Source: Syntrophobacteria bacterium (lineage in GTDB: Bacteria; Desulfobacterota; DSWW01). From it: DNA of 33,498 nt. Numbering within the stretch: position 1 is the stretch's first letter; each line of letters opens with the position of its first letter. Positions 6,427 to 24,995 of this stretch are shown here, in pieces. The stretch spans positions 1 through 33,498 of the forward strand of contig JAQYVQ010000188.1 of NCBI GenBank assembly GCA_030145435.1. The letters are read 5' to 3'. The notes beneath the pieces are model-generated. The model worked only from the letters and a program-made list of their open reading frames with translations, searched no databases and had not been told where the DNA came from. A program made the translations under genes and the position numbers.

Positions 6427-7257
6427 ATGCCCGTACAAAGATCCTTTACCGTCGATGACGTCATTCTCCTGCTGCCCCCTCCAACCGAAATGGATGTCGA
6501 GTGGATCGGCCAGGAGGAGGTCATCCACCAGCTCCTGGCGGCCTGGATGGTTCTCGACGAGAAGGATCTTCCCCTGAACCCTCGGTTGGTGGGAAACCCG
6601 GGGATGGGGAAGACGACCTGCGCGTACGCTGCGGGCCTGCGAATCGAGAAGCCGATCTATCTATTTCAGGCCACCGTGGATACCCGGCCCGAGGATTTGA
6701 TCGTCATGCCCGTCCTCGGCCCAAAACAGGAGGTCCAGTACATGGCCTCCACGATCGTGGCGGCCACGGTCAACGGCGGCGTCTGCATTCTGGACGAGGG
6801 AAACCGGATGAACGAGAAGTCGTGGGCGTCCCTGGCCCCGCTGCTGGATCACCGCCGGTATCTGGAAAGCATGGTAACGGGCATCAAGATCCCTGCGCAC
6901 CCGGATTTCCGATTTGTCACGACCATGAACGAGGATGCCTCGACGTACGATCTGCCGGAATACATCCACTCCCGTCTGCAACCCCAGATCCACATAGACT
7001 TCCCGGAAGAGGACGAAGAGCGAGCCATCCTGAAGGCGAACATCCCGTTCGCAGAAGAAGAGATCCTGACCTATGTTCTCGCCTTCCTCGCCCGGGCCCA
7101 TCAAGCGGACGAGCGATACACCGTTCGTGACGGAATCAACATCGTCCGGTATGCAATGAAACTGCTTCATCGGGAAGAGGGAACCCCCAGCCAGATGTTC
7201 GAGAAGGCCCTTCGCCTGATCCTTGGCGAGGAGGCAATGCCCTATGTCGGTGTCTGA
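6427..7257 (+). CDS. AAA+ ATPase, MoxR class (CbbQ/NorQ-sized, AAA_5-like)
   Basis: 276 aa. It has Walker A GNPGMGKT, Walker B VCILDEGNR, the sensor region FRFVTTMNEDAS..YDLPEYIHSRL and the lid FPEEDEERAIL. An AAGGA SD lies upstream of the ATG. Confidence 0.85.
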   Translation: MPVQRSFTVDDVILLLPPPTEMDVEWIGQEEVIHQLLAAWMVLDEKDLPLNPRLVGNPGMGKTTCAYAAGLRIEKPIYLFQATVDTRPEDLIVMPVLGPKQEVQYMASTIVAATVNGGVCILDEGNRMNEKSWASLAPLLDHRRYLESMVTGIKIPAHPDFRFVTTMNEDASTYDLPEYIHSRLQPQIHIDFPEEDEERAILKANIPFAEEEILTYVLAFLARAHQADERYTVRDGINIVRYAMKLLHREEGTPSQMFEKALRLILGEEAMPYVGV

Positions 7258-9238
7258 CCCCTGGACGATTCCGTGGGGCAATCTCTCCTGCCTGCCCGTC
7301 TGCCACTACCGACTCGAGTTCGCCGAGTTGGTGCGCGCTCAATTCGCAGAGGACCCTCCCGACTGCCTTGCCCTCGAGTTGCCTTCCCATCTGGCAGACG
7401 CGTATAAGCGCGCGATCTCGCGCCTTCCGGAGGTATCGATTCTTCTGTTCGAAGACGCTTCCGGACAGACCGTCTACTTGCCCGTAGAACCCGTGGATCC
7501 CTTCGCAGAAGCTGCCCGATCCGCCCTGGAACTGGGGATCCCGGTGCATCTCGTGGACATCAACCTGGAAGAAGCCTACCCTCCCTTTCGCGACCCTGTT
7601 CCCGACCCGTATGCCCTCCACGAGATCGGTCCGAAGCTCTACTACGAGGCATTTCGAACCATCTGGCAGGAGAAGCTCAAGGACCACCCCCTGGACATCC
7701 GCAGAGAGCAGGGCATGGCCGCCCACCTGCAGGGCCTCCTCGGCAAGCATTCCAAGGTCCTCTTCGTCTGTGGAATGATCCATGCCGAAGGCGTGATCAA
7801 ACGACTCGACCAGCCCCAGGCGACGCCACTGCATCGGGTGCACTCACCGCCCTTTCAGGTCTTTCACCTGCACCCCTCCTGTCTCGACGAGGTGATGGCA
7901 ACCTTCCCCCTACTCAGCGCCCTTTACGAAACCCGAAGGAAGGGGCTTCCTCCCGAACCTGAAAGGGACCGTTTCACGCTGCGAAGGAGTTTCCGTATCG
8001 AATCCCGCCCATTCGCATTGTACGGGAAGGAGGACGCCGTTTACGACGAAAGGGCCGCTCTCGAAGGCTCCCTCGCATGGATTGCCCGCCGCGCAGGCCT
8101 TGGAGAGGAGAGTGACGACCCACCAGGGCCCATCGACCGGAACCGGGCACTCTATTTTCTCCTCGAAGAGGCGGGCAGACATTACAGAGACGAAACGGGA
8201 GAGCAGGTAAAGGGCTGGCAGAAGCGGGTTTTCTGGAAATTCGTGAGAAACTATGCGCTCGTGCACGGTCTCCTGCTGCCCGAATTCTACCACCTCCTCG
8301 TGGGTGCACGGTCCAGTGTGGATGACAACATGTGCTACAGTCTCTGGCGACTGGGTGGGTTCTACCCCTGGCAGGCGGAGTCCTCCAATGTGCCCACCTT
8401 GACGGTAAAGGGGGAGGAGGTCTGGCTCGGGACCCGCCGGATCCACGTCCGGAGGTGGCTGCCCAGAAAGAAACAGCGCCTGCAGGGCGTGCTGCGCAAA
8501 CATCGTAAGCGGGAGAGATATCCGGGGGAGTGGCTCGAGAGCTTTGACGGGAGCGCCCTTTGCTCCTACCCGCCCGAAGACCTCGTCGTGGAGGATTACG
8601 GTCGCTTCCTGCGAGAACAATGGCGACACATACTGAAGGACGAGCACAACCCGTCCGAGCCGTTTGTCACGTCTTTTCTCGACGGCATCGACATTCGAGA
8701 GACGATCAGGAAATGGCACGAAAAGCGCATCTATGTCAAGAATCGGGAGGCGTCAAGAGGGGGTTCGGGTGCGGTGGTCGTCATCTTCGATGAAGACGAA
8801 AAGGATGATCAATACCCCTACCGGATGACCTGGCTGGGAGAGCATGAACAGGAATCCGACATGGCATTCTATGCAACCTCTCCCGAGGAGAACATCGTGG
8901 GCCCGGGTATGTGTCGATGCGAGTATGGGGGATTCCTGATGACCTACCCGCCGCGCAGGCTCTACGATGTGTGGCAGGATCCTGACTACCGCTTCCTGCA
9001 ATCCAAGGCCGAGGTTCTCCTCGCGGCGGCCCTGGACTATTCTCTGGAGAGGCAGGTCGTCTACGTGGCTTCCCGTCCACCACGTTCCATCATGCGAACC
9101 CTTGCCGAGAGGCTTCGACGGCAAATCGTCTATATCCCGAAGGGCGCGCTCTCCCCATCCCGACTGAAGAGGACCCGCGTCTTCCACATCCTGAGCGGGC
9201 ATGACAAACGGGACGGGGCCAAAGACTTCATCGTCTGA
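7244..9238 (+). CDS. Large (664 aa) uncharacterised protein with an N-terminal TraB/PrgY/GumN (Tiki-superfamily)-like domain, partner of the MoxR-like ATPase
   Basis: The ATG at 7244 overlaps the ATPase stop by 14 nt. PVCHYRLEFAELVRAQFAEDPPDCLALELP resembles the TraB GTAHVS...PD.VaVEL pattern. AARSALELGIPVHLVDIN and REQGMAAHLQGLL....KVLFVCGMIHAEGV resemble ..A...g..v.liD and eRD..Ma..L....vvaVvGaGH..G. I recognise nothing in the C-terminal 450 aa, and no DxSxS MIDAS motif is visible. Confidence 0.7.
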   Translation: MSVSDPWTIPWGNLSCLPVCHYRLEFAELVRAQFAEDPPDCLALELPSHLADAYKRAISRLPEVSILLFEDASGQTVYLPVEPVDPFAEAARSALELGIPVHLVDINLEEAYPPFRDPVPDPYALHEIGPKLYYEAFRTIWQEKLKDHPLDIRREQGMAAHLQGLLGKHSKVLFVCGMIHAEGVIKRLDQPQATPLHRVHSPPFQVFHLHPSCLDEVMATFPLLSALYETRRKGLPPEPERDRFTLRRSFRIESRPFALYGKEDAVYDERAALEGSLAWIARRAGLGEESDDPPGPIDRNRALYFLLEEAGRHYRDETGEQVKGWQKRVFWKFVRNYALVHGLLLPEFYHLLVGARSSVDDNMCYSLWRLGGFYPWQAESSNVPTLTVKGEEVWLGTRRIHVRRWLPRKKQRLQGVLRKHRKRERYPGEWLESFDGSALCSYPPEDLVVEDYGRFLREQWRHILKDEHNPSEPFVTSFLDGIDIRETIRKWHEKRIYVKNREASRGGSGAVVVIFDEDEKDDQYPYRMTWLGEHEQESDMAFYATSPEENIVGPGMCRCEYGGFLMTYPPRRLYDVWQDPDYRFLQSKAEVLLAAALDYSLERQVVYVASRPPRSIMRTLAERLRRQIVYIPKGALSPSRLKRTRVFHILSGHDKRDGAKDFIV

Positions 9239-9250
9239 GGGGTCGACTTC

Positions 9251-11272
9251 CTACTTCTGTTCCTGTTCCTTCTCGTACTCGGCTACGATCGCCTTGTGTA
9301 CAAGCGGCGGCACGATGTCGTAGTGATCGAATTCCATCGTGTAGGAACCCTCTCCCCCGGTCATGGACTTCAGCCCGGCCTGGTAGTTCTGAACCTCTCC
9401 CAACGGGATCAGCGCCTGGACCACGGCCAGGTTGCCCTCGCTGCCGCTCGTGAGGATCCGCCCGCGCTTTCCGTTGAGATCCCCCATCACATCGCCCATG
9501 TTTGCCTGCGGGACGACAACTTCCAGTTTCACGATCGGCTCGAGGAGGACGGGATTGCATAGGAGCACCGCCTTCTTGAAGGCCTCCCGGCCTGCGATCT
9601 GGAAGGCGATGTCCTTCGAGTCCACCGGGTGTGTCTTGCCGTCCACGAGCGTGACCCGCACATCCACGACGGGATTGCCCGCGAGCACCCCCTCCGCCAT
9701 CTTGCTCTGAACGCCCTTGTCCACCGACGGGCGGAAGGTCTGGTCGATCACACCGCCGAAGATCTTGTCCGCGAACTCGTATCCGGCCCCTCGTTCCCGG
9801 GGCTCCAAATCGATGAAGACCCTCGCAAACTGCCCCGCGCCACCCGTCTGTTTCTTGTGCGTGTACTCCACGTACTTGGCGCTCTTTGTGATCGTCTCCA
9901 TGTAGGGGATCTTGGGGGGGGTTGTTTCAACCTCGACCTTTCGTCTCCTCTTGATCTTCTTCAACATCAACAAGAGGTGAACATCCGACATTCCGCTCAG
10001 AACGAGGTCGCCGGTCTGCGCGTCCGCCCGTACGGCAACCGTTCGGTCGTCCGCAACGAGTTCTTTCAGGGCCGTACTGATCTTCGTTTCGTCCCCTCGG
10101 CTCTTCGGCCGGACCGCCAGGGAACACATGGGCGTCGGAAACTTGATTTCCGGGAGCGTGATCTTCGTCTTGTCATCGGTCAGGGTATCCCCGGCCAGGA
10201 TGTCCTCCACCTTGGCCACGGCCACGATGTCTCCGCACACCCCCTGTTCGACCGGATTCTGTTCCTTCCCACAAATCTTCAACAACCCCCCTATTCGTTC
10301 ACTCTTTCCCGAGCGACGGTTCACGAAGGAGGTGTTGGAATCAAGGCTACCGGAAAGGACCCTCAGGTACGATATTCGGGTCACGAACTCGTCGGCAATG
10401 GTCCTGTATACGAAGCCCACGAACCCATTGTCCGGGTCCAGCACGACCTCTTCCTCCCCTGCCATCCCCTTCCGCTCGACCTCGTTCGGGTTCGGCGCAA
10501 AGGTCGCTAGAAAATCAAGCGTCTCCTCCAGCCCCACCTGTGGCTCCCCGGCGGCAACCAGCACAGGGAAAAGCACCCTCTTCAACATGGCCTTGGTGAA
10601 GGTGGACCGGAAGACCTCGTCGGAGATTTCCTCTCCTTCGAGGTACTTCTCCATCAACGCGTCGTCCGCTTCCACGACCGCCTCGCTCAGGCTCTCATTC
10701 AAGGAAGACACTTCCTCCGGCGCTCCGTCCGGAGGCTCCACCACGGAGAATACCTTGCTAAAAGAGGAGGCCGATCCATCCGGCCACAGGGCGGGGATGC
10801 AACGATCCCCGAAGAGTTCCTGGATCTCGGCAAGGGTCTTCGCGTAGTTTGTGTTCTCGGCGTCAAGCCTCGTAATCGCAAAGCAGCAGGGCAAACCGAG
10901 CTTCTCCGCTTCTTGCCAGATCTTGCGTGTGTTCACCTTGACTCCGCTCGTGGCATCCACGCAGATCAGGGCACACTCTACGGCACGAAGGGCAGTAAGC
11001 ATGTCGCCCACGCAGTCCGACGATCCGGGGACATCGAGGACATTGAAGGCCACGTCTTTGTAGGAGAAGGAGAGTGTTGAACAGGAGAAGGACTTCCCCC
11101 CTTCCCTCTCATCCTGATCAAAATCGCTCGCCGTATTGCCTTCCTTGATGGTTCCCATGCGTGTCAACACGCCCACCTTGTGCAGAAACGCTTCGACGAG
11201 TATCGTCTTTCCAGCACCTTCGTGGCCGACAAGGGCAATGTTCCGGATTTTGGTGGTTTCGATACGGGCCAT
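9251..11272 (-). CDS. Elongation factor G-like translational GTPase paralogue with degenerate G motifs
   Basis: 673 aa with the full five-domain EF-G layout, including the domain II barrel, domain IV and the C-terminal GEGSYTMEFDHY. The P-loop GHEGAGKT is intact. However, switch II reads DVPGSSD (not DxPGH), G4 reads TRLD (not NKxD) and switch I reads EREGGKSF (not ERGITI). Confidence 0.9.
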   Translation of the reverse strand: MARIETTKIRNIALVGHEGAGKTILVEAFLHKVGVLTRMGTIKEGNTASDFDQDEREGGKSFSCSTLSFSYKDVAFNVLDVPGSSDCVGDMLTALRAVECALICVDATSGVKVNTRKIWQEAEKLGLPCCFAITRLDAENTNYAKTLAEIQELFGDRCIPALWPDGSASSFSKVFSVVEPPDGAPEEVSSLNESLSEAVVEADDALMEKYLEGEEISDEVFRSTFTKAMLKRVLFPVLVAAGEPQVGLEETLDFLATFAPNPNEVERKGMAGEEEVVLDPDNGFVGFVYRTIADEFVTRISYLRVLSGSLDSNTSFVNRRSGKSERIGGLLKICGKEQNPVEQGVCGDIVAVAKVEDILAGDTLTDDKTKITLPEIKFPTPMCSLAVRPKSRGDETKISTALKELVADDRTVAVRADAQTGDLVLSGMSDVHLLLMLKKIKRRRKVEVETTPPKIPYMETITKSAKYVEYTHKKQTGGAGQFARVFIDLEPRERGAGYEFADKIFGGVIDQTFRPSVDKGVQSKMAEGVLAGNPVVDVRVTLVDGKTHPVDSKDIAFQIAGREAFKKAVLLCNPVLLEPIVKLEVVVPQANMGDVMGDLNGKRGRILTSGSEGNLAVVQALIPLGEVQNYQAGLKSMTGGEGSYTMEFDHYDIVPPLVHKAIVAEYEKEQEQK

Positions 11273-11354
11273 GAGAAAACCTCTTCGAACTGGGGTTGAA
11301 ATGGACGCCTAAAGCGCACGGTGAATCGACGAACTTCCGAAAAATAATCTTTTA

Positions 11355-11383
11355 TTATTAGCACACTTGCGGCGCACTGTAAA
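11355..11383 (-). promoter_or_regulatory. Putative sigma-70 promoter for the EF-G-like gene (TTTACA-17-TAATAA on the minus strand)
   Basis: The minus strand reads TTTACA (complement of 11378-11383), a 17-nt spacer, then TAATAA (complement of 11355-11360), about 80 nt upstream of the ATG at 11272. This is a sequence match only. Confidence 0.4.
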
Positions 11384-11440
11384 GTTAGCGCCCAATCGCT
11401 GTTTGAGTCTATCCGGTGGCCGTGCAAGAGAATAGCTCTT

Positions 11441-11570
11441 GGCTGTAAGCTGTTAGCTATTAGCCCACCCCGCCCCCATTTTGGGCGCGTCCTGTTGGGG
11501 CGTGTGGTTGGGAGCTAACAGCTAAAAGCTAACGGCTAACAGCCAGGTTCGACAGGACGAGGACGAGCGG
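11441..11570 (-). repeat. Mosaic palindromic intergenic element, copy E2 (inverted relative to E1), with a flanking TCGTCC module
   Basis: The hairpin at 11441-11544 reads GGC-TGTAAGC-TGTTAGC-TATTAGC / CCACCCCGCCCCCA...GGGGCGTGTGGTTGGGA / GCTAACA-GCTAAAA-GCTAACG-GCTAACA-GCC. It is followed by GACAGGACGAGGACGAGCGG at 11551-11570. It lies between the pcm stop (11577) and the EF-G-like promoter. Confidence 0.9.
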
Positions 11571-11576
11571 TCGAGC

Positions 11577-12317
11577 TTAATGCTCCCCAAGAAACGGCAC
11601 AAACCGAACCGGGAGAACCGCACGCTTGGAGATGGAACCGTCGCGGCCCTTCTCGATGAGCGTCAACTGCTGTACCTGATACCTCCCACCCACCGGAATG
11701 CACATCCTGCCGCCCGGCTTGAGTTGCTGCAGTAAGGGAGGGGGAATCTCGCGGGGAGCGGCTGTCACGATAATCGCGTCGAAGGGGGCATGTTCATTCC
11801 ATCCGAGATATCCGTCACCGCGCCTCACCCGGATGTTCTTGTATCCGAGTGACTTGAGCCGGGCGCCGGCCTCCTGCGCCAGAGCAGGGCTGATTTCCAC
11901 GGTGAACACTCGGCCGACGAGCCCTGCCAGTACGGCCGCCTGGTACCCGGACCCGGTCCCGATCTCGAGAACCCGATCCCCGGGCTTCAATTGCAGCAGT
12001 TCGGTCATCAGGGCCACGATGTAAGGCTGGGAGATCGTCTGCCCCTGCCCGATCGGAATCGGATGATCGTCGTATGCCTCGTCCCGATACTCACCGGGCA
12101 CGAAGCAGTGGCGGGCCACCCCCCGCATGGCCCGCAGCACGGAGCCGTCCTTGACCCCACGAGCCTGGATCTGCTCACGGACCATCTTCTCCCGTTCTTT
12201 GGCATATCGCTCCGGGCGGCAACCCGGAGTGTCTTCGGACGCAAACGCCTCCTTGGCGCAGAACCCCAGGACGAGGAACAGGCCTGCCCAAAGAATACGA
12301 AGCATCCGGGTGTTCAC
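11577..12317 (-). CDS. pcm: Protein-L-isoaspartate O-methyltransferase with an N-terminal signal peptide
   Basis: Motifs GQTISQPYIVALMTE, VLEIGTGSGYQAAVLA, APFDAIIVTAA and RFVPF are present. The N-terminus MNTRMLRILWAGLFLVLGFCAKEAFA/SEDT has n/h/c regions and an AXA cleavage site. I prefer the GTG at 12317, which has GGAGG 7 nt upstream; an alternative ATG lies at 12305. Confidence 0.85.
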   Translation of the reverse strand: MNTRMLRILWAGLFLVLGFCAKEAFASEDTPGCRPERYAKEREKMVREQIQARGVKDGSVLRAMRGVARHCFVPGEYRDEAYDDHPIPIGQGQTISQPYIVALMTELLQLKPGDRVLEIGTGSGYQAAVLAGLVGRVFTVEISPALAQEAGARLKSLGYKNIRVRRGDGYLGWNEHAPFDAIIVTAAPREIPPPLLQQLKPGGRMCIPVGGRYQVQQLTLIEKGRDGSISKRAVLPVRFVPFLGEH

Positions 12318-12402: not shown

Positions 12403-14516
<2,114 letters not shown>

Positions 14517-14535
14517 CCGGGTCCCCTTCTTCCTC

Positions 14536-15201
14536 TCAAGAATGCCTGCCAGACGGCTTCTCTTCCCATCCAAACGTCCCGATCAGGGGGACGAAGACGC
14601 AGCCGGTACCTTCCTCCCTTTGAATCTTGTTCCGCTCCTTCTTGACGGTGCATAGTGTCTGGTGGTGGGCGCTCCCGATCGGGATGACCAGCCTTCCCCC
14701 CTCTGCCAGCTGTTCCACCAAGGGGTCGGGGAGCTCCGGCGCCCCGGCCGTCACGATAATCGCGTCAAAAGGGGCTTTCTCGCGCCACCCTTCCGACCCA
14801 TCCCCCACCCGGATCGAAACATTCTCATACCCCAGGCGGGAGAGCAACCCCTCCGCCCTTTCCGCCAACTCCGGAATCCTCTCGAGGGAGTAGACCTCGC
14901 GGGCGAGTTCCGCAAGAATCGCTGTCTGATATCCGGAACCGGTTCCCACCTCCAGAACACGATCGTCCGGTTCCGGCGCCGCGCACTCGGTCATCAGAGC
15001 AACCATGTAGGGCTGGGATATGGTCTGCCCCTTGCCGATGGAAAGCGGGCTGTCTTCATAAGCGTGACCGTATGAGTCCTCCGGAACAAACCGGTGCCTG
15101 GGTATCTTCTCCATGGCGGCCAGAACCCGGTGGCTCCGAACCCCTCTCTTTAGAATCTGGCGTTCCACCATCCGCTGGCGCTGGCGCTCGTAATCGGTCA
15201 C
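14536..15201 (-). CDS. pcm: Protein-L-isoaspartate O-methyltransferase (cytoplasmic copy)
   Basis: Motifs GQTISQPYMVALMTE, VLEVGTGSGYQTAILA, APFDAIIVTAG and VFVPL are present, with no signal peptide. I prefer the GTG at 15201, with AGGAG overlapping the archease stop. The ORF extends to a GTG at 15234, and an ATG alternative lies at 15171. Confidence 0.85.
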   Translation of the reverse strand: MTDYERQRQRMVERQILKRGVRSHRVLAAMEKIPRHRFVPEDSYGHAYEDSPLSIGKGQTISQPYMVALMTECAAPEPDDRVLEVGTGSGYQTAILAELAREVYSLERIPELAERAEGLLSRLGYENVSIRVGDGSEGWREKAPFDAIIVTAGAPELPDPLVEQLAEGGRLVIPIGSAHHQTLCTVKKERNKIQREEGTGCVFVPLIGTFGWEEKPSGRHS

Positions 15202-15214
15202 GCAGCCGGTTCTC

Positions 15215-15676
15215 CTAGAGATCCATGACCACACGGGCGACCCATCCCCTCTTGGTCCTCCGAATCTGAACGTCGTGGTAGGTCACGGCCTTGATTTCAC
15301 GCTGCCCTGCCATTCGGTTGTCCGTAAGCATCTCCCAGCCACCACGCACAACCACCCTGCAACCTCCCGCCCCCTCTTCGTCTCGCAGGACGGACAGTTC
15401 CTGAAGGTCGAGCCGCCTTCTTTCTACGGTCGCCCTGTAAAGGAGTTCCCCGAGAAGCTCTACGAGGGCCTCCTCCGGATCCTGTCCTTTGATTTCCAGT
15501 CTTTCCCCAGGGGCGGTAGCTCTACGACCCGACACGGCCGGCAGTCCCATGAGCAGGTAGAGCGACTCCACGGCGTTTCGGAAAAGCTCCTTCTCATCCT
15601 TCCCCTGTATCTCCACGCGCAGATCGGCGGTGTGGTCGAGTTCTCTGAAAGGCACCTTCCGGCTTGATTCCTTCAC
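15215..15676 (-). CDS. Archease
   Basis: This is the C-terminal 153 codons of ORF 15215..15928. FRELDHTADLRVEIQG.DEKELFRNA, IKAVTYHDVQI and W.ARVVMDL match the archease family. I chose the GTG at 15676 because the acyP gene ends at 15697. The start is uncertain. Confidence 0.75.
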   Translation of the reverse strand: MKESSRKVPFRELDHTADLRVEIQGKDEKELFRNAVESLYLLMGLPAVSGRRATAPGERLEIKGQDPEEALVELLGELLYRATVERRRLDLQELSVLRDEEGAGGCRVVVRGGWEMLTDNRMAGQREIKAVTYHDVQIRRTKRGWVARVVMDL

Positions 15677-15696
15677 GGGGAAATCCGGCTTCCGTT

Positions 15697-15981
15697 TCAA
15701 TAGGTGATTTCGAAGGAAGGCAGTTTTTTCCCGTTCCCTGCTTCTTCGACCACCTCGACTTCCCGGACCCTCGCATGCGATGGGCCCTGTTGACACCAGG
15801 CCTCGAACGTCCCGACCCTGGCAGGATCCCCTTGGACCATCGCCTCGACGCGTCCGTCCGGCAGATTGCGAACCCACCCCCTCAGCCCCAGCCTGCGAGC
15901 TTCGTCTCGGGCGTAAACACGAAAACACACGCCCTGCACCCGGCCGGATATCAGCAGTCGAATCCGTCTCTCTTGCTTCAC
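15697..15981 (-). CDS. acyP: Acylphosphatase
   Basis: 94 aa. It contains ISGRVQGVCFR and GLRGWVRNLPDGRVEAMVQG. It has a GTG start with a purine-rich SD (GGGGAGGGGAGAGGG) upstream. Confidence 0.85.
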   Translation of the reverse strand: MKQERRIRLLISGRVQGVCFRVYARDEARRLGLRGWVRNLPDGRVEAMVQGDPARVGTFEAWCQQGPSHARVREVEVVEEAGNGKKLPSFEITY

Positions 15982-18580: not shown

Positions 18581-19939
18581 ATGGCTCTATTGAATCACTC
18601 CAAAAAAGAATTGAGCGCAAAGATCGTCTACTACGGGCCCGGACTGTCCGGGAAAACCACGAACCTCGAGTGGATTCACCGGAAGCTGGCTCCCGACAAG
18701 CGGGGCAAGCTGATCTCCCTCGAGACCAAGACGGACCGTACGCTCTTCTTCGATTTTCTGCCCGTCCAGATCGGGGAAATATCCGGGTTTCGAACCCGCT
18801 TCAATGTCTACACCGTCCCCGGCCAGATCTTCTACAACGAAACACGAAGGATGGTACTGAAGGGTGTTGACGGAATCGTCTTCGTTGCGGACTCCCAGAA
18901 AGAGATGGCCAACGAAAACCTGGAAAACCTGAAGAACCTGGCCGAGAACCTTCGCTCCATCGGAAAGGAGCTCGCCAAGGTTCCCTTGGTGATTCAATTC
19001 AACAAGAGGGACCTGGCGAACATCCTGTCCGTGGAAGAGATGAATCGCCTCCTGAACGCACCCGGTCTCCCCTTCTTCGAGGCTGTCGCCGTCAAGGGAG
19101 AGGGTGTCCTCACAACCCTGACCCGGATCACGCGGGTCGTGGCGGATCACCTGCAACAGACCCTGTTCGCTTCCTCGGGAACCGGCGCTCCGGCCGGCCG
19201 GCCCGATCCCGTTCCACCTCCGGGGACCAGGAACGAGCCTCCTCGTGCGATTTTCGAATCAACAACTCGGCCCTCCGAGTCCGACACCCCTGCATTCCTG
19301 AGCAAGCAGCCTCAGACTGCACCGCCAAGCGGGATTCCGGAGCCTCATGTTTTTTCTCAAGATAAAGTTGTAACTCCCTCTTTTGGTGAATCTTTTGGAG
19401 GGGACAATACACCGAATACCCCCCGACCAAGCCTTGCTTCCGTCGGTTCTCCGGCTGCGCAGCCTCTCCCCTCAGACGACATCCCGAGTCTGGGAGACTT
19501 CGGTGAGCCTCCTCAAACCAAGCCGGATCTGGACACGATTCCAACCCTGGCTTCCCTTGAGACCACTCCAACCAGAGAGGTTGGCTCTCCAAAGGATACC
19601 GTAGTCCCCATGGACAGGGCAGCCCCCAGGGACAGGGTAATCCCCATGGAGAGGCCATCCGCCGCCGAAATGGCATCCGACCAACCAGCGCCTGCACCCG
19701 CGACCCCAGAGGCCCCCACGGGATCCTACTGGGTGGATCCTTCGATCGTGTCGGTCGCGGCCGAAAAGGTTTCCGCCCCCGAGTCTCAGCAAGGCGTAGC
19801 GCTCAGGTTTGGGGAGCCTGAAAGAGAGAGCGGAAATCAGGTGAGAATTCCCGTTGCTCTCCGGCTGGAAGCCACCAATGAGCTCATCTCTTTTCAGATG
19901 GTCATCCGGGTCGAGCAGGAACCAGGCGGATCCTCCTGA
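18581..19939 (+). CDS. mglA: MglA-family Ras-like GTPase with a ~260-aa Pro/Ser/Thr-rich C-terminal extension
   Basis: The first ~190 aa align by eye almost throughout with Myxococcus MglA as I recall it: KIVYYGPGLSGKTTNL, TDRTLFFDFLP, YTVPGQIFY, GVDGIVFVADSQ, QFNKRD. A low-complexity P/S/T-rich tail follows, ending in a ~60-aa beta-like segment (VALRFGEP...ISFQMVIRVEQ). Confidence 0.85.
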   Translation: MALLNHSKKELSAKIVYYGPGLSGKTTNLEWIHRKLAPDKRGKLISLETKTDRTLFFDFLPVQIGEISGFRTRFNVYTVPGQIFYNETRRMVLKGVDGIVFVADSQKEMANENLENLKNLAENLRSIGKELAKVPLVIQFNKRDLANILSVEEMNRLLNAPGLPFFEAVAVKGEGVLTTLTRITRVVADHLQQTLFASSGTGAPAGRPDPVPPPGTRNEPPRAIFESTTRPSESDTPAFLSKQPQTAPPSGIPEPHVFSQDKVVTPSFGESFGGDNTPNTPRPSLASVGSPAAQPLPSDDIPSLGDFGEPPQTKPDLDTIPTLASLETTPTREVGSPKDTVVPMDRAAPRDRVIPMERPSAAEMASDQPAPAPATPEAPTGSYWVDPSIVSVAAEKVSAPESQQGVALRFGEPERESGNQVRIPVALRLEATNELISFQMVIRVEQEPGGSS

Positions 19940-21036: not shown

Positions 21037-22335
21037 TTAGGCATCCCTCTCTGTTGTCATCCTCTCGTAGCACGCCAGCACGGATTCGTATTCCATTTCC
21101 ATTGTGGCACCCGGCGCACAGGTCGAATCGCCCACCAGAAAGAGGCCCTCCACGTTCGGGACACGGTAGCCCGGTCTGTCTTTCCTGGTTTGATCCGACT
21201 GAATGGCAATGCTGTCCAGCATTCGAACCACATGGGAGCGCTTCCATTCGACCGCCATTTCCGCCCGCGGAAGGGCCTTCCGAAGGTTTTCTTCGATCTT
21301 CTTCTCCAGGGCCCTCACCACCTCCGGTTGTCGCACTTCTTCAGGGGAGCAAGGGCAGACGAACGTGGCGAGTTGTTTCCCCGCGGGGGCATGGCGATGA
21401 CACAGGTTCGACAAGAAGGTGCCATAGCTGGGTGGGTCCATGAAGAACCAGAGGCCCTTCTTGTGGAAGATGCGGTTCTTCAGGGCAAGGTCGACGATCA
21501 GTGCGGCGGAGGGTACCGCCTTCTCGCAGAGATTGACGAATTCTTTCGTCGTAGCCCCCTCGGGCAGGAGACTGACCAATTGCTGACAGGGCGCAGCGCA
21601 GACCACATGTGAGGCCTCCAGCGTCTCCCCCCCCACCCTGACACCCGTCACCTTGCCTTCCTTGATCTCGATCCTCTCGACCCTTGTCCGCCATCGGATT
21701 TCCCCGTGGTTCTCGATCTCCCGCTCGAGCCCTTCCAGAATCGGGATCCACCCCTCTCGCGGGTAAGCCAGGTAAGAGCGCAACCGGAAGGCCTTCTGGA
21801 AGCACCGCAAGGTCTCCCCCGCGGATATCTTCTCTGGGGCGGTACAGTGGGTCGATTCATAGGCAAGGACCTTCAAGTACTTCTGCAGGCTCCCGCGTAT
21901 ATTGTTGCGGACGAACCACTCCTCCAGGCTTTCCTCCTCCATATCCTCCAGCGTCTCTCCTTTCAGGCTACGGAGAAGCCTCAGGGCGAAAACCCAATCC
22001 CATTTGGAGAAGAAGTCAGCCCGAAGAATCCCGGGCTTTCCGATCGTAATCCGACGGACCTTCTGATCCGTATCGAGAACCCAGGCCTGGTTCAAGGGGA
22101 CGAGGAGCGGTTTCAAGCCGAGCTGCTTGCATATTCTGTAGAAAGGGCCCTTTTCTCCATAGCGGACCCGCGGAATCCCCGGCAGCGAGAGAAAGCCGTC
22201 CCGTTCCCAGGGTGCGGCTCTTCCCCCGGCGACCCTCTTCCTTTCCAGCATGAGAACCTTCCATCCCGCCCGGGCCAGCATGGCACCGAGGGTCATTCCA
22301 GGAAGGGTAGCGCCCAAAAGGATACAGTCATACAT
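21037..22335 (-). CDS. FAD/NAD(P)-dependent oxidoreductase (phytoene desaturase/CrtI-like family)
   Basis: 432 aa. The N-terminal dinucleotide-binding fold reads DCILLGATLPGMTLGAMLARAGWKVLMLERKRVAGGRA. The C-terminal GLFLVGDSTCPG-like motif reads GLFLVGDSTCAPGATME. Confidence 0.75.
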   Translation of the reverse strand: MYDCILLGATLPGMTLGAMLARAGWKVLMLERKRVAGGRAAPWERDGFLSLPGIPRVRYGEKGPFYRICKQLGLKPLLVPLNQAWVLDTDQKVRRITIGKPGILRADFFSKWDWVFALRLLRSLKGETLEDMEEESLEEWFVRNNIRGSLQKYLKVLAYESTHCTAPEKISAGETLRCFQKAFRLRSYLAYPREGWIPILEGLEREIENHGEIRWRTRVERIEIKEGKVTGVRVGGETLEASHVVCAAPCQQLVSLLPEGATTKEFVNLCEKAVPSAALIVDLALKNRIFHKKGLWFFMDPPSYGTFLSNLCHRHAPAGKQLATFVCPCSPEEVRQPEVVRALEKKIEENLRKALPRAEMAVEWKRSHVVRMLDSIAIQSDQTRKDRPGYRVPNVEGLFLVGDSTCAPGATMEMEYESVLACYERMTTERDA

Positions 22336-22348
22336 CGGAAAAGACCCC

Positions 22349-23710
22349 TCAAGCGGGCTCGAGACCCGGAGGATCGAAAGAATCCTCTATGCGGATGAAC
22401 AGGCTCTTATCGAGCGCCACCTCCAATCGATCGATCACGTCCAGGGCATGCCGCACATCACGCTCTCTCGCCTCGTGGGTGAGCATGATGATGTGCACGG
22501 GGCCTGCTTGCTGTCGCCCCTTCTGGATGACCGAATCTATGGAGATCCCGTGATCCCCCAGGATTCCCGAGATCTTCGAGAGAACCCCCGGCCGATCAAC
22601 GACGGGAAAGCGCATGTAGTATTTCGTGACGAGCTCCTCCATCGGTCGCAACCGCGCATCCTGGGGGAACTGGCCATAGAAACCCAGGGCAGGAATGTCG
22701 TGGGGCATGCCCGGGCGCATGTTCCGTGCCAGCGAGACGAGGTCGCTCACCACGGCGCTCCCGGTGGGCATCATGCCTGCCCCCTTCCCGTAGAACATGA
22801 CCGGCCCCGTTCCTCGTCCGGTGGCGTAGACTGCGTTGAAGGCATGGCCTACCGAGGCGAGAAGGTGCGATTCCGGGATCATGGTGGGATGCACGCGTGC
22901 CTCGAGTTCGCCGTCCAGGATCTTCGAAAGGGCCAACAGCTTGATCCGGTACCCCAATTCCCTCGCATAACGTATGTCCATGCCCGTCACGCGCTGTATT
23001 CCCTCCGTGAAGATATCCTCCGGGTGCACACTAACCCCGCAGGCCAACCCGATCAGAATCGCCAATTTGTGGGCCGTATCCTGCCCCTCGATATCGAGAC
23101 TCGGATCCGCCTCAGCATATCCCTTTTCTTGCGCCTCCTTCAGGCACTCGGGAAACTCCCTTCCCTGTTCCGTCATCGTGGAGAGGATGTAGTTCGCGGT
23201 GCCATTGATAATTCCGGCGATCGACAGAATCCGATCGGCGGCCAAACCCTCCCGCAAGCTTCGAACGATCGGAATGCCGCCCGCCACAGCGGCCTCGAAC
23301 CCGATCTGCACTCCCTTCGCCTCTGCGGCCTGGAACAGCTCCGTCCCGTGGGAGGCCAGCAATGCCTTGTTGGCCGTGACCACGTGCTTCCCCGCTGCAA
23401 TCGCATCGAGCACAAAGGACTTGGCCGGCTCGATCCCGCCCATCAGTTCGATCAGGACCCGGATCTCCGGGTCTTCGAGGATGTCTTCCACGCGGGTCGA
23501 GGTCTGGACCTTCTCCAGGGAGACCCCCCGATCCCGCTCGAGATCAAGGTCGGCGATTCGTTTCAGCCTTATCTGCCTTCCCGACCTTCTCTCCAGCCAG
23601 GCGGCTTCCTCCAGGAGAATCTTGGCCACTCCCGTTCCCACCGTACCGAATCCGGCCAGTCCTACCTGCAGCGCTTCCAAGGTCTCCCTCCTCCCAGTGG
23701 GGTGACTCAC
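22349..23710 (-). CDS. hom: Homoserine dehydrogenase
   Basis: It has the NAD-binding motif VGLAGFGTVGTGV, the catalytic region HVVTANKALLA and a C-terminal ACT domain (RFPVVDRPGVLSKISGILG). The ORF opens at a GTG at 23710. A TTG at 23680, preceded by GGGAGGAGGGAG, is a plausible true start. Confidence 0.9.
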   Translation of the reverse strand: MSHPTGRRETLEALQVGLAGFGTVGTGVAKILLEEAAWLERRSGRQIRLKRIADLDLERDRGVSLEKVQTSTRVEDILEDPEIRVLIELMGGIEPAKSFVLDAIAAGKHVVTANKALLASHGTELFQAAEAKGVQIGFEAAVAGGIPIVRSLREGLAADRILSIAGIINGTANYILSTMTEQGREFPECLKEAQEKGYAEADPSLDIEGQDTAHKLAILIGLACGVSVHPEDIFTEGIQRVTGMDIRYARELGYRIKLLALSKILDGELEARVHPTMIPESHLLASVGHAFNAVYATGRGTGPVMFYGKGAGMMPTGSAVVSDLVSLARNMRPGMPHDIPALGFYGQFPQDARLRPMEELVTKYYMRFPVVDRPGVLSKISGILGDHGISIDSVIQKGRQQAGPVHIIMLTHEARERDVRHALDVIDRLEVALDKSLFIRIEDSFDPPGLEPA

Positions 23711-23731
23711 AAGTTCTGTCGCAGAGGTCTT

Positions 23732-24937
23732 CTACAAGACCTGCCGTATGCCTCTGGCCGCCTGCTGGATCCTCTGCTCGTTCTCGACCAGAGCGAAGCG
23801 CACGTACCCCTCACCGAATTCCCCAAACCCGACGCCCGGCGAGACAGCCACCTTCGCCTCCTTGAGCAGGAGCTTGGTGAACTCCAGGGACCCCATTTTC
23901 TGAAAGGGCTCCGGGATCTTCGCCCAGACAAACATGGTCGCCTTCGGCTTCTCGATCTCCCATCCGGCCCGGCCCATCGCGTCGATCAATACGTCCCGTC
24001 TCTTCTGATACACATCCACGATGGATTGCACGCACTCCTGCGGGCCGTTCAAGGCAACGGTGGCGGCAATCTGGATCGGTTGAAAGATGCCGTAATCGAG
24101 ATAGCTCTTTATACGGGTCAGGGCCCCGATCATCTCCTTGTTGCCTACGACGAAGCCGATCCGCCAGCCCGGCATGTTGTAGCTCTTCGACATGGAGAAC
24201 ATCTCCACGCCCACGTCCCTGGCTTCCGGCACCTCGAACAGGCTGGGCGCCTGGTAGCCGTCGAAACAAAGATCCGAATAGGCAAAATCGTGGATGATCA
24301 GGATCTTGTTTTCCCTTGCGATGGAGACGATCTTCTCGAAGAAGCTCTTGTCCACCACGCGCGTCGTCGGGTTGTGGGGAAAGCTCAGGATCATCATGCT
24401 CGGACGCGGCCAGGTCCCCTTTATGGCCCGGGTAAGGTCCTCGAAGAAGTCCCGATCCGGGCTGATGGGAACACTGTGCACGTCCGCCCCGGCGATCATG
24501 ACCGAATACATGTGGATCGGGTAGGTCGGATTCGGAACGAGCACGATGTTTCCCGGCCCCAGGGTCGCCAGGGCAAGGTGAGCCAGCCCTTCCTTTGCGC
24601 CTATCGTCGCAATTGCCTCCGAATCCGGATCGAACTCCACCCCGTATCGCCTGCGGTACCAATCCACGATGGCCAGCCGAAGCTTGTAAATCCCTCTCGA
24701 GACGGAATACCGATGATTCCGCGGGTTCTGGATCGCCTCGGTGATCTTGTCCACGATGTGGGGAGGGGCCCCGTGATCCGGGTTCCCCATCCCGAGGTCG
24801 ATGATGTCCTCGCCGGCCCTCCGCGCCTCCATCTTCATCGCATCCACCGTACTGAACACGTAAGGAGGAAGCCTCTTCATCCTCGCAAACTCGAGGTCCA
24901 GCCCCTTCCGCTCCTCCTGCGTCTCGATAACCGACAC
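23732..24937 (-). CDS. Class I/II PLP-dependent aminotransferase (alanine/aspartate aminotransferase, AlaC-like)
   Basis: 401 aa. It contains DLGMGNPD, the NPTYP-type region VPNPTYPIH, and the PLP-lysine context [15 protein letters not shown]. It has a GTG start with AAGGAGGA 5 nt upstream. Confidence 0.9.
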
Positions 24938-24995
24938 GGTTTTCCTCCTTCTTAAGTTTTCATTCCTCCCCGAGGAGGCTGTCTTGGCAAGCCCC

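Follow-up and report, generated by a model that had tools for sequence, protein, structure and literature searches.

Among the subfamilies of elongation factor G (EF-G), EFG I is indispensable and no other subfamily replaces it alone (Margus et al. 2011). A gene of the subfamily EFG II is expected to accompany EFG I, or else an spdEFG pair, within one genome. The subfamily EFG II is defined by weakly conserved domains I-III and by the loss of the motif RGITI, of which a remnant xxxSx is left (Margus, Remm & Tenson 2011, PMC3150367). Its G2 consensus keeps Ser or Thr at the fourth position, and Gly16 (the first G1 residue, Ala in EFG I) and Leu25 are named EFG II positions (PMC3150367). The P-loop Asp of canonical factors, which binds a monovalent cation, is replaced by Gly in EFG II (Atkinson 2015, PMC4342817). 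Here we describe a gene of this kind on contig JAQYVQ010000188.1 of a Syntrophobacteria bacterium (assembly GCA_030145435.1); the whole stretch of 33,498 nucleotides that was analysed is called the window below. The gene is an open reading frame (ORF) on the minus strand at 9251-11272, which an earlier note, made from the sequence alone, had described as a diverged EF-G paralogue lacking the catalytic His of switch II. Our results indicate that the missing His and the altered G motifs are the normal signature of the known EFG II (EF-G2) class, which makes it a new representative of this class and not a new kind of protein.

Three EF-G2 proteins with solved structures were used for comparison. 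EF-G2 of Bacteroides thetaiotaomicron (FusA2, BT2167; 7UVP, 8DMF), which carries the same His-to-Ser replacement, is reported to support translation that is independent of GTP and to translocate without hydrolysis (PMC10294740, PMC12775393), and carbon limitation is a strong inducer of it (PMC6989115). EF-G2 of Mycobacterium smegmatis (MSMEG_6535; 9K0Z, 9K10), with Tyr at this position, is a non-essential second factor with minimal GTPase activity, and the substitution H88Y nearly abolishes the GTPase of M. smegmatis EF-G1 (bioRxiv 10.64898/2026.05.25.727771). The third is EF-G-2 of Thermus thermophilus (1WDT, 2DY1).

Class membership of the gene product

The ORF is intact at 673 amino acids (aa), as had been claimed from its translation, and encodes a full five-domain EF-G homologue; the Pfam domains found in the product are GTP_EFTU (residues 8-260), D2, EFG_III, EFG_IV and EFG_C. 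An AlphaFold2 (AF2) model of the protein is confident (pLDDT 89.4, pTM 0.82). Its top TM-scores, 0.91, were obtained with the ribosome-bound forms of B. thetaiotaomicron EF-G2 (8dmf) and of Escherichia coli EF-G, and T. thermophilus EF-G-2 (1wdt) was at rank 2 in Foldseek with a TM-score of 0.86 and 35% identity.

The protein scored 786.8 bits with the NCBIfam model NF009381 ('elongation factor G' subfamily, PRK12740.1-5; cut-off 583), which is also matched by all 43 aligned relatives, and 638 bits with NF009891 (cut-off 597), and passes both. With TIGR00484, the equivalog model of canonical EF-G (EFG I, FusA), it reached 528.8 bits against a cut-off of 659.4 and fails. The gene is not part of the str operon (rpsL-rpsG-fusA-tufA): its neighbours are pcm, eno, a gene for a protein with bifunctional-nuclease and PDZ domains (BFN-PDZ), an AAA_5 gene and ORF671, with no rpsL or rpsG among them, and the 33.5-kb window holds no other EF-G. 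Because it fails TIGR00484 and does not adjoin rpsL and rpsG, the product is considered a paralogue and not the housekeeping factor, which supports the description as a diverged EF-G paralogue.

When the G domain alone was used as the query, the best solved relatives were M. smegmatis EF-G2 (9k0z, 163 bits), B. thetaiotaomicron EF-G2 (7uvp, 149 bits) and T. thermophilus EF-G-2 (1wdt, 144 bits), and canonical EF-Gs gave at most 115 bits. The alignment and phylogenetic placement proposed in the earlier note led to the same grouping: in a neighbour-joining tree, calculated by a distance method from the G domain only and with no spdEFG references, canonical EF-G fell on one side in 198 of 200 bootstraps and everything else on the other, including the query and the EF-G2s of all three reference species. 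Domains II-V scored 347 and 323 bits with canonical EF-G, against 255-264 bits with the solved EF-G2s. The query has both EFG II marker residues, G16 (of GHEGAGKT) and L25 (invariant in the alignment). It also has Ser at the fourth position of GGKSF, the segment aligned to RGITI, and Gly for Asp in the P-loop (GHEG vs AHID). It is nearly certain that the gene encodes an EFG II-class paralogue of EF-G.

B. thetaiotaomicron EF-G2 is similar to the query in having Ser at the His position (DCPGSDD vs DVPGSSD in the query), in the replacement of RGITI with Ser kept (YGYSV vs GGKSF) and in a Gly-rich P-loop without Asp, and its ribosome-bound form superposes on the query model with the TM-score given above. 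It differs in that it is only 32% identical to the query, has GSSGSGKT as G1 and NQLD as G4 (GHEGAGKT and TRLD in the query), and is 718 aa long, with a longer G' subdomain and, in domain IV, some 25-30 additional residues that the query appears to lack. T. thermophilus EF-G-2 resembles the query in its length (665 aa), its P-loop GHAGSGKT, its G4 TKLD and the lack of the catalytic His, but it has Tyr instead of Ser at that position (DAPGYGD), and GTPase and translocation activities have been reported for it. M. smegmatis EF-G2 likewise has TKLD as G4, an xxRSV-type G2 and no catalytic His (Y98, in DTPGYAD), but it has Tyr and not Ser, the P-loop GPSGGGKT and a length of 709 aa, and its domain I is reported to lie displaced from the sarcin-ricin loop on non-rotated ribosomes. 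Canonical EF-G has the same five domains, and the loop HKKQTGGxGQF is common to the query and Mycobacterium tuberculosis EF-G, but all five G motifs of the canonical factor differ from those of the query.

G motifs, their frequency among relatives and their conservation

The register of the motifs was determined by residue-by-residue phmmer alignments to solved EF-Gs and by direct translation of the codons. The motif calls made earlier, that is, a preserved P-loop, a changed switch I, Ser in place of His and TRLD as G4, were confirmed. The codon ranges given with two of them were one codon off: 11012-11032, assigned to DVPGSSD, translates as VPGSSDC, and 10865-10876, assigned to TRLD, reads ITRL by the same arithmetic. 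The corrected positions are listed in Table 1. In addition, G5 of the query is AAG instead of SAL.

The frequencies of the His-to-Ser change and of TRLD, which the earlier note had suggested surveying, were determined in two sets of homologues. The first set, the 115 full-length homologues closest to the query (90% clusters), had S, Y, A, G or T at the switch II position and in no case His, and TRLD was its most frequent G4 (60/115). The wider set consisted of the best 150 representatives of 50% identity clusters from an exhaustive HMMER scan, with residues tallied over 149 of them. At the His position these have Tyr (81), Phe (21), Ala (10), Asp (8), Ser (6), Leu (6) and His (5); His is thus absent from 144 of the 149 family representatives (about 97%), and one of the five that bear it is a plain canonical EF-G. 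This figure for the nearest EFG II cluster representatives was not found in the published accounts examined. At the fourth position of G2, 123 representatives have Ser and 25 have Thr, and the most frequent G4 in this set is NKxD. In a set of 80 genome loci, relatives with at least 36% identity were all without His, and matches with 32-34% identity were all canonical (AHIDAGKT, RGITI, DTPGH, NKxD, GSAL).

Judged from these sets, Ser at the His position and a T-R-x-D type G4 are minority, lineage-level variants inside the family and not departures from it. With His present in none of the close homologues and in five of the representatives, the combination of motifs is not remarkable. The loss of RGITI with Ser kept and the P-loop Gly are published EFG II traits (PMC3150367, PMC4342817).

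Conservation was analysed in an alignment of 43 sequences. In the G domain, G21, T23, L25, D80, G83 and D137 are invariant, S61 is conserved in at least 90% of the sequences, and the query has retained K22. In the acidic helix of G', E197, D203 and Y210 are invariant, and at E208, L211 and E212 conservation is 90% or more. The ratio of nonsynonymous to synonymous substitution rates (dN/dS), calculated against three orthologues (L001-L003), was 0.05-0.07 for the G core and 0.075-0.096 overall; values against a further orthologue, L081, are invalid past the G core, where indels break the ungapped codon alignment, and were ignored. Purifying selection acts strongly on the G core, and the G domain is not decaying. 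The residues needed for Mg-GTP binding are retained, namely K22 and T23 (G1), S61, D80 and G83 (G3) and D137 (G4). Because dN/dS of the G core is low and the nucleotide-binding residues are invariant or nearly so, Mg-GTP binding and the switch mechanism have probably been kept. An altered base specificity (for ATP or XTP), which had been suggested on account of TRLD, was rejected as unlikely since Asp137 of G4 is invariant. A G4 of the T-x-x-D type is found in genuine guanine-nucleotide binders, for example dynamin (TKxD).

Proposed function and alternative explanations

The best overall explanation, which we consider reasonably probable, is that the protein is an EFG II-class paralogue that acts as an alternative translocase and hydrolyses little or no GTP. 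For the hydrolysis-independent mechanism itself, which is argued by analogy to the characterised factors, the chances seem even or slightly better. The negatively charged G' region of canonical EF-G contacts the L7/L12 stalk (Margus et al. 2011, PMC3150367), and the query would probably be recruited through the acidic helix of its G' subdomain and bind at the ribosomal factor site. GTP binding would likely serve as a conformational switch and not as fuel. Domain IV would enter the A site and drive slow translocation of tRNA and mRNA during which the ribosome stimulates GTP hydrolysis very little or not at all, as has been reported for B. thetaiotaomicron EF-G2 with its identical His-to-Ser change. 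Such a protein could be an alternative, energy-saving elongation factor in starvation or stationary phase, with housekeeping translocation left to a presumed canonical fusA elsewhere in the genome.

The pattern of conservation is consistent with a role in translocation. Of all domains, domain IV is conserved best (mean identity 80%, entropy 0.70 bits), and its tip loops are the parts of EF-G that reach the decoding centre of the 30S subunit. In these loops H472, K473, K474, Q475, G477, G478, G480, Q481, G545, H548, V550 and S552 are invariant, the exceptions within H472-Q481 being T476 and A479. The earlier proposal that the protein serves in regulation, protection or hibernation rather than in translocation is therefore not favoured. 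The suggestion that it is GTPase-dead or slow is plausible in view of the precedents with Ser in B. thetaiotaomicron and Tyr in M. smegmatis, but the absence of His is no proof of it: T. thermophilus EF-G-2 has Tyr and no His and is nevertheless reported to be GTPase-active (bioRxiv 10.64898/2026.05.25.727771), so the motif alone does not establish that hydrolysis has been lost.

That activity is one of several observations that weigh against a hydrolysis-free translocase. M. smegmatis EF-G2 is a binder of non-rotated ribosomes with no function in recycling, and it has been called a stress regulator and not a translocase (bioRxiv 10.64898/2026.05.25.727771). The identity of the query to all three characterised EF-G2s is only 32-35%, and it fails the models built for two of these groups, with 545 bits against a cut-off of 890 for NF009377 (actinobacterial EF-G-like protein EF-G2) and 531.9 bits against 1000 for NF058620 (Bacteroidota EF-G2). 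Within domain IV, the match to NF058620 breaks near model position 511, and the alignment to 7uvp splits at chain residues 515/536; from the alignment coordinates, the domain IV insertion of B. thetaiotaomicron EF-G2 appears to be missing from the query. Han and colleagues are said to have found in 2023 that a 26-residue region specific to EF-G2 is essential for the behaviour of the B. thetaiotaomicron factor. If so, the transfer of its mechanism to the query may not be direct.

Some relatives have lost the P-loop Lys. Of the 115 clusters of closest homologues, 29, at 52-60% identity to the query, have Glu in its place (DHEGAGET, GHEGSGET, GHEGAGET); these proteins include P0044, P0048, P0054, P0058, P0065 (Mariprofundus ferrinatatus), P0079 (M. 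micogutta) and P0089-P0095. The change is found in at least two related sequence groups (DHEGAGET and GHEGSGET), and since the motif contexts are distinct, Lys was probably lost independently two times or more. These relatives have probably ceased to bind nucleotide, and the tip loops of domain IV, HKKQ(S/T)GGAGQ and GKTH.VDS, are kept in all six of them that were checked. Taken together, this hints at a nucleotide-independent function in the EFG II branch of the query, whose marks GHEGxGKT, DVPGS(S/P)D and TRLD are found in metagenome-assembled genomes (MAGs) of Thermodesulfobacteriota, Nitrospinota, Zetaproteobacteria and Planctomycetota. It is conceivable, but we think improbable, that the branch is heading towards a nucleotide-independent ribosome factor, that the query is a GTP-binding, non-hydrolysing intermediate, and that the translocation or A-site occupancy shared by the branch needs no nucleotide.

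The protein might instead be a stress-specific ribosome-binding regulator or hibernation-type factor that occupies the factor site of idle 70S ribosomes or 50S subunits without translocation or recycling. This role has been proposed for M. smegmatis EF-G2, whose G domain is the closest solved one to that of the query and which, lacking GTPase and recycling activities, binds non-rotated 70S ribosomes and stationary-phase 50S subunits. The loss of the P-loop Lys in related clades is compatible with a purely binding role, and the two protein-repair genes for protein-L-isoaspartate O-methyltransferase (PCMT) in the same-strand cluster upstream are a weak hint of a stationary-phase context. However, the constraint on domain IV and its invariant tip loops fit contacts with the decoding centre and tRNA in translocation, domains II-V are closer to canonical EF-G than to the solved EF-G2s, and B. 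thetaiotaomicron EF-G2, which has the same Ser, does translocate (PMC10294740; bioRxiv 10.64898/2026.05.25.727771). We therefore regard a pure stress binder as rather unlikely.

A somewhat lower probability is assigned to a fully active GTPase translocase, that is, a second working EF-G in which another residue or the ribosome itself activates the water. Conservation of the GTP-binding residues and of the acidic helix of G', as well as the strong purifying selection on the G core, would suit such a factor, and T. thermophilus EF-G-2 (DAPGYGD, TKLD) is reported to have intrinsic and ribosome-dependent GTPase and translocation activities (PMC3150367; bioRxiv 10.64898/2026.05.25.727771). On the other hand, Ser, unlike His, has no precedent as a catalytic residue at the switch II position. 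The sole characterised protein with Ser there, B. thetaiotaomicron EF-G2, is described as lacking GTPase in the title of Han et al. 2023 as given in citing papers. The effect of H88Y on M. smegmatis EF-G1 points in the same direction, and the Lys-to-Glu change is tolerated in related clades, which makes a central role of hydrolysis in the function of the subfamily unlikely. The identification as a ribosomal protection protein of the Tet(M)/Tet(O) type or as another EF-G-derived factor (RF3, BipA or LepA) is effectively refuted. The overall fold is common to these proteins and their models do match the query weakly, but the scores are far below the cut-offs (tet_protect, NF012153, 275.3 vs 775 bits; RF3, 163 vs 473; BipA, 128 vs 757; LepA, 80 vs 534) and are exceeded two- to threefold by those of EF-G-type models. 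Moreover, the query has a full EF-G domain IV with a loop, HKKQTGGAGQ, identical to the canonical pattern.

The locus and the meaning of the finding

The features of the locus are listed in Table 1. The nearest genomes are those of uncultured Thermodesulfobacteriota MAGs, whose proteins have 85-90% aa identity to the query.

Table 1. Coordinates of the EF-G2-type gene, its domains and motifs, and the surrounding features in the window
Feature	Coordinates	Strand	Evidence and remarks
EF-G2-type (EFG II) paralogue, coding sequence	9251..11272	(-)	673 aa + stop codon 9251-9253; ORF, Pfam, NCBIfam NF009381, AF2
G-domain core, residues 1-160	10793..11272	(-)	phmmer alignments; dN/dS
G1/P-loop GHEGAGKT	11204..11227	(-)	canonical AHIDAGKT; GKT kept, Asp replaced by Gly
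G2/switch I GGKSF	11087..11101	(-)	canonical RGITI; Mg-coordinating Thr replaced by Ser61; phmmer alignments
G3/switch II DVPGSSD	11015..11035	(-)	canonical DTPGHVD; Ser84 at catalytic His position
G4 TRLD	10862..10873	(-)	canonical NKMD; Asp137 kept, invariant in alignment
G' subdomain, residues 161-265	10478..10792	(-)	contains acidic helix EADDALMEKYLEGEE at 10672-10628
Domain II, residues 266-377	10142..10477	(-)	Pfam EF-G_D2 / GTP_EFTU_D2
Domain III, residues 378-452	9917..10141	(-)	Pfam EFG_III
Domain IV, residues 453-572	9557..9916	(-)	Pfam EFG_IV; tip loops HKKQTGGAGQ (9859-9830), GKTHPVDS (9640-9617)
Domain V and C-terminal helix, residues 573-673	9254..9556	(-)	Pfam EFG_C; helix 656-672 in AF2 model
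Shine-Dalgarno AAGAGG	11280..11285	(-)	7 nt upstream of ATG at 11272
Candidate sigma-70-type promoter	11355..11383	(-)	-35 TTTACA 11383-11378, TG 11363-11362, -10 TAATAA 11360-11355; consensus scan
PCMT paralogues	11577-12317 and 14536-15234	(-)	same-strand cluster directly upstream of EF-G2 gene
Enolase	12403-13695	(-)	same upstream cluster
BFN-PDZ protein	13731-14573	(-)	same upstream cluster
Archease	15215-15928	(-)	same upstream cluster
AAA_5 (MoxR-like) ATPase gene	6427-7257	(+)	overlaps ORF671 by 35 nt
ORF671	7223-9238	(+)	671 aa; DUF5682 only, E 0.076

In six orthologous upstream regions TTTACA and TG.TA of the candidate promoter are invariant, as is AAGAGGTTT, the Shine-Dalgarno region, while the remainder of the spacer varies. 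Because both signals are conserved against this variable background, the comparison suggests that the EF-G2 gene is transcribed on its own from the candidate promoter. Between pcm and this promoter, at 11440-11550(-), lies a long inverted repeat, AGCTGTTAGCT ... AGCTAACAGCT, which folds into a stable hairpin, and the 304-nt upstream spacer folds with z = -2.7. The hairpin may be the terminator of pcm or a regulatory element; no Rfam family was matched anywhere in the window, the hairpin included. The minus-strand order ahead of the EF-G2 gene is archease, PCMT, BFN-PDZ protein, enolase and second PCMT. The copy number and position of PCMT vary among relatives.

On the other side, the gene converges on the AAA_5/ORF671 pair, as the earlier note had stated, and the gap of 12 nt given there is correct (9239-9250). 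A scan for terminators between the convergent genes found none. The arrangement itself is real, but the label 'TraB-like' for ORF671 has no support in Pfam or NCBIfam: no family of either database was above threshold, and the DUF5682 match is weak. The convergent arrangement is kept in relatives with 70-90% EF-G2 identity and is lost at 61% and 58%. It is therefore best read, from this comparison of loci, as a reflection of shared ancestry, with no evidence of functional coupling. A functional link between EF-G2 and the pair was rejected on this ground, and since the genes converge, they cannot be co-transcribed.

Elsewhere in the window, 18581-19939(+) encodes a protein of 452 aa whose N-terminal part is a small-GTPase domain of the Arf/Ras type (Pfam Arf E 1.4e-8, Ras E 3.5e-6) and whose C-terminal half was assigned to no family; the same gene is also found near the orthologue in L081. 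A putative ORF of 901 aa at 22250-24955(+) has no Pfam match even at E = 1.

Proteins such as the one described here are labelled 'elongation factor G' in databases, and their correct annotation is of practical value, the EF-G2-type paralogues under this label almost certainly not acting as the housekeeping GTPase. The relatives without the P-loop Lys are natural test cases for how much translocation needs nucleotide; a nucleotide-free function, if true, would be a step beyond what has been described for B. thetaiotaomicron EF-G2. If the mechanism of the B. thetaiotaomicron factor generalises, hydrolysis-free, energy-saving translocation would extend to anaerobic lineages related to sulfate reducers.

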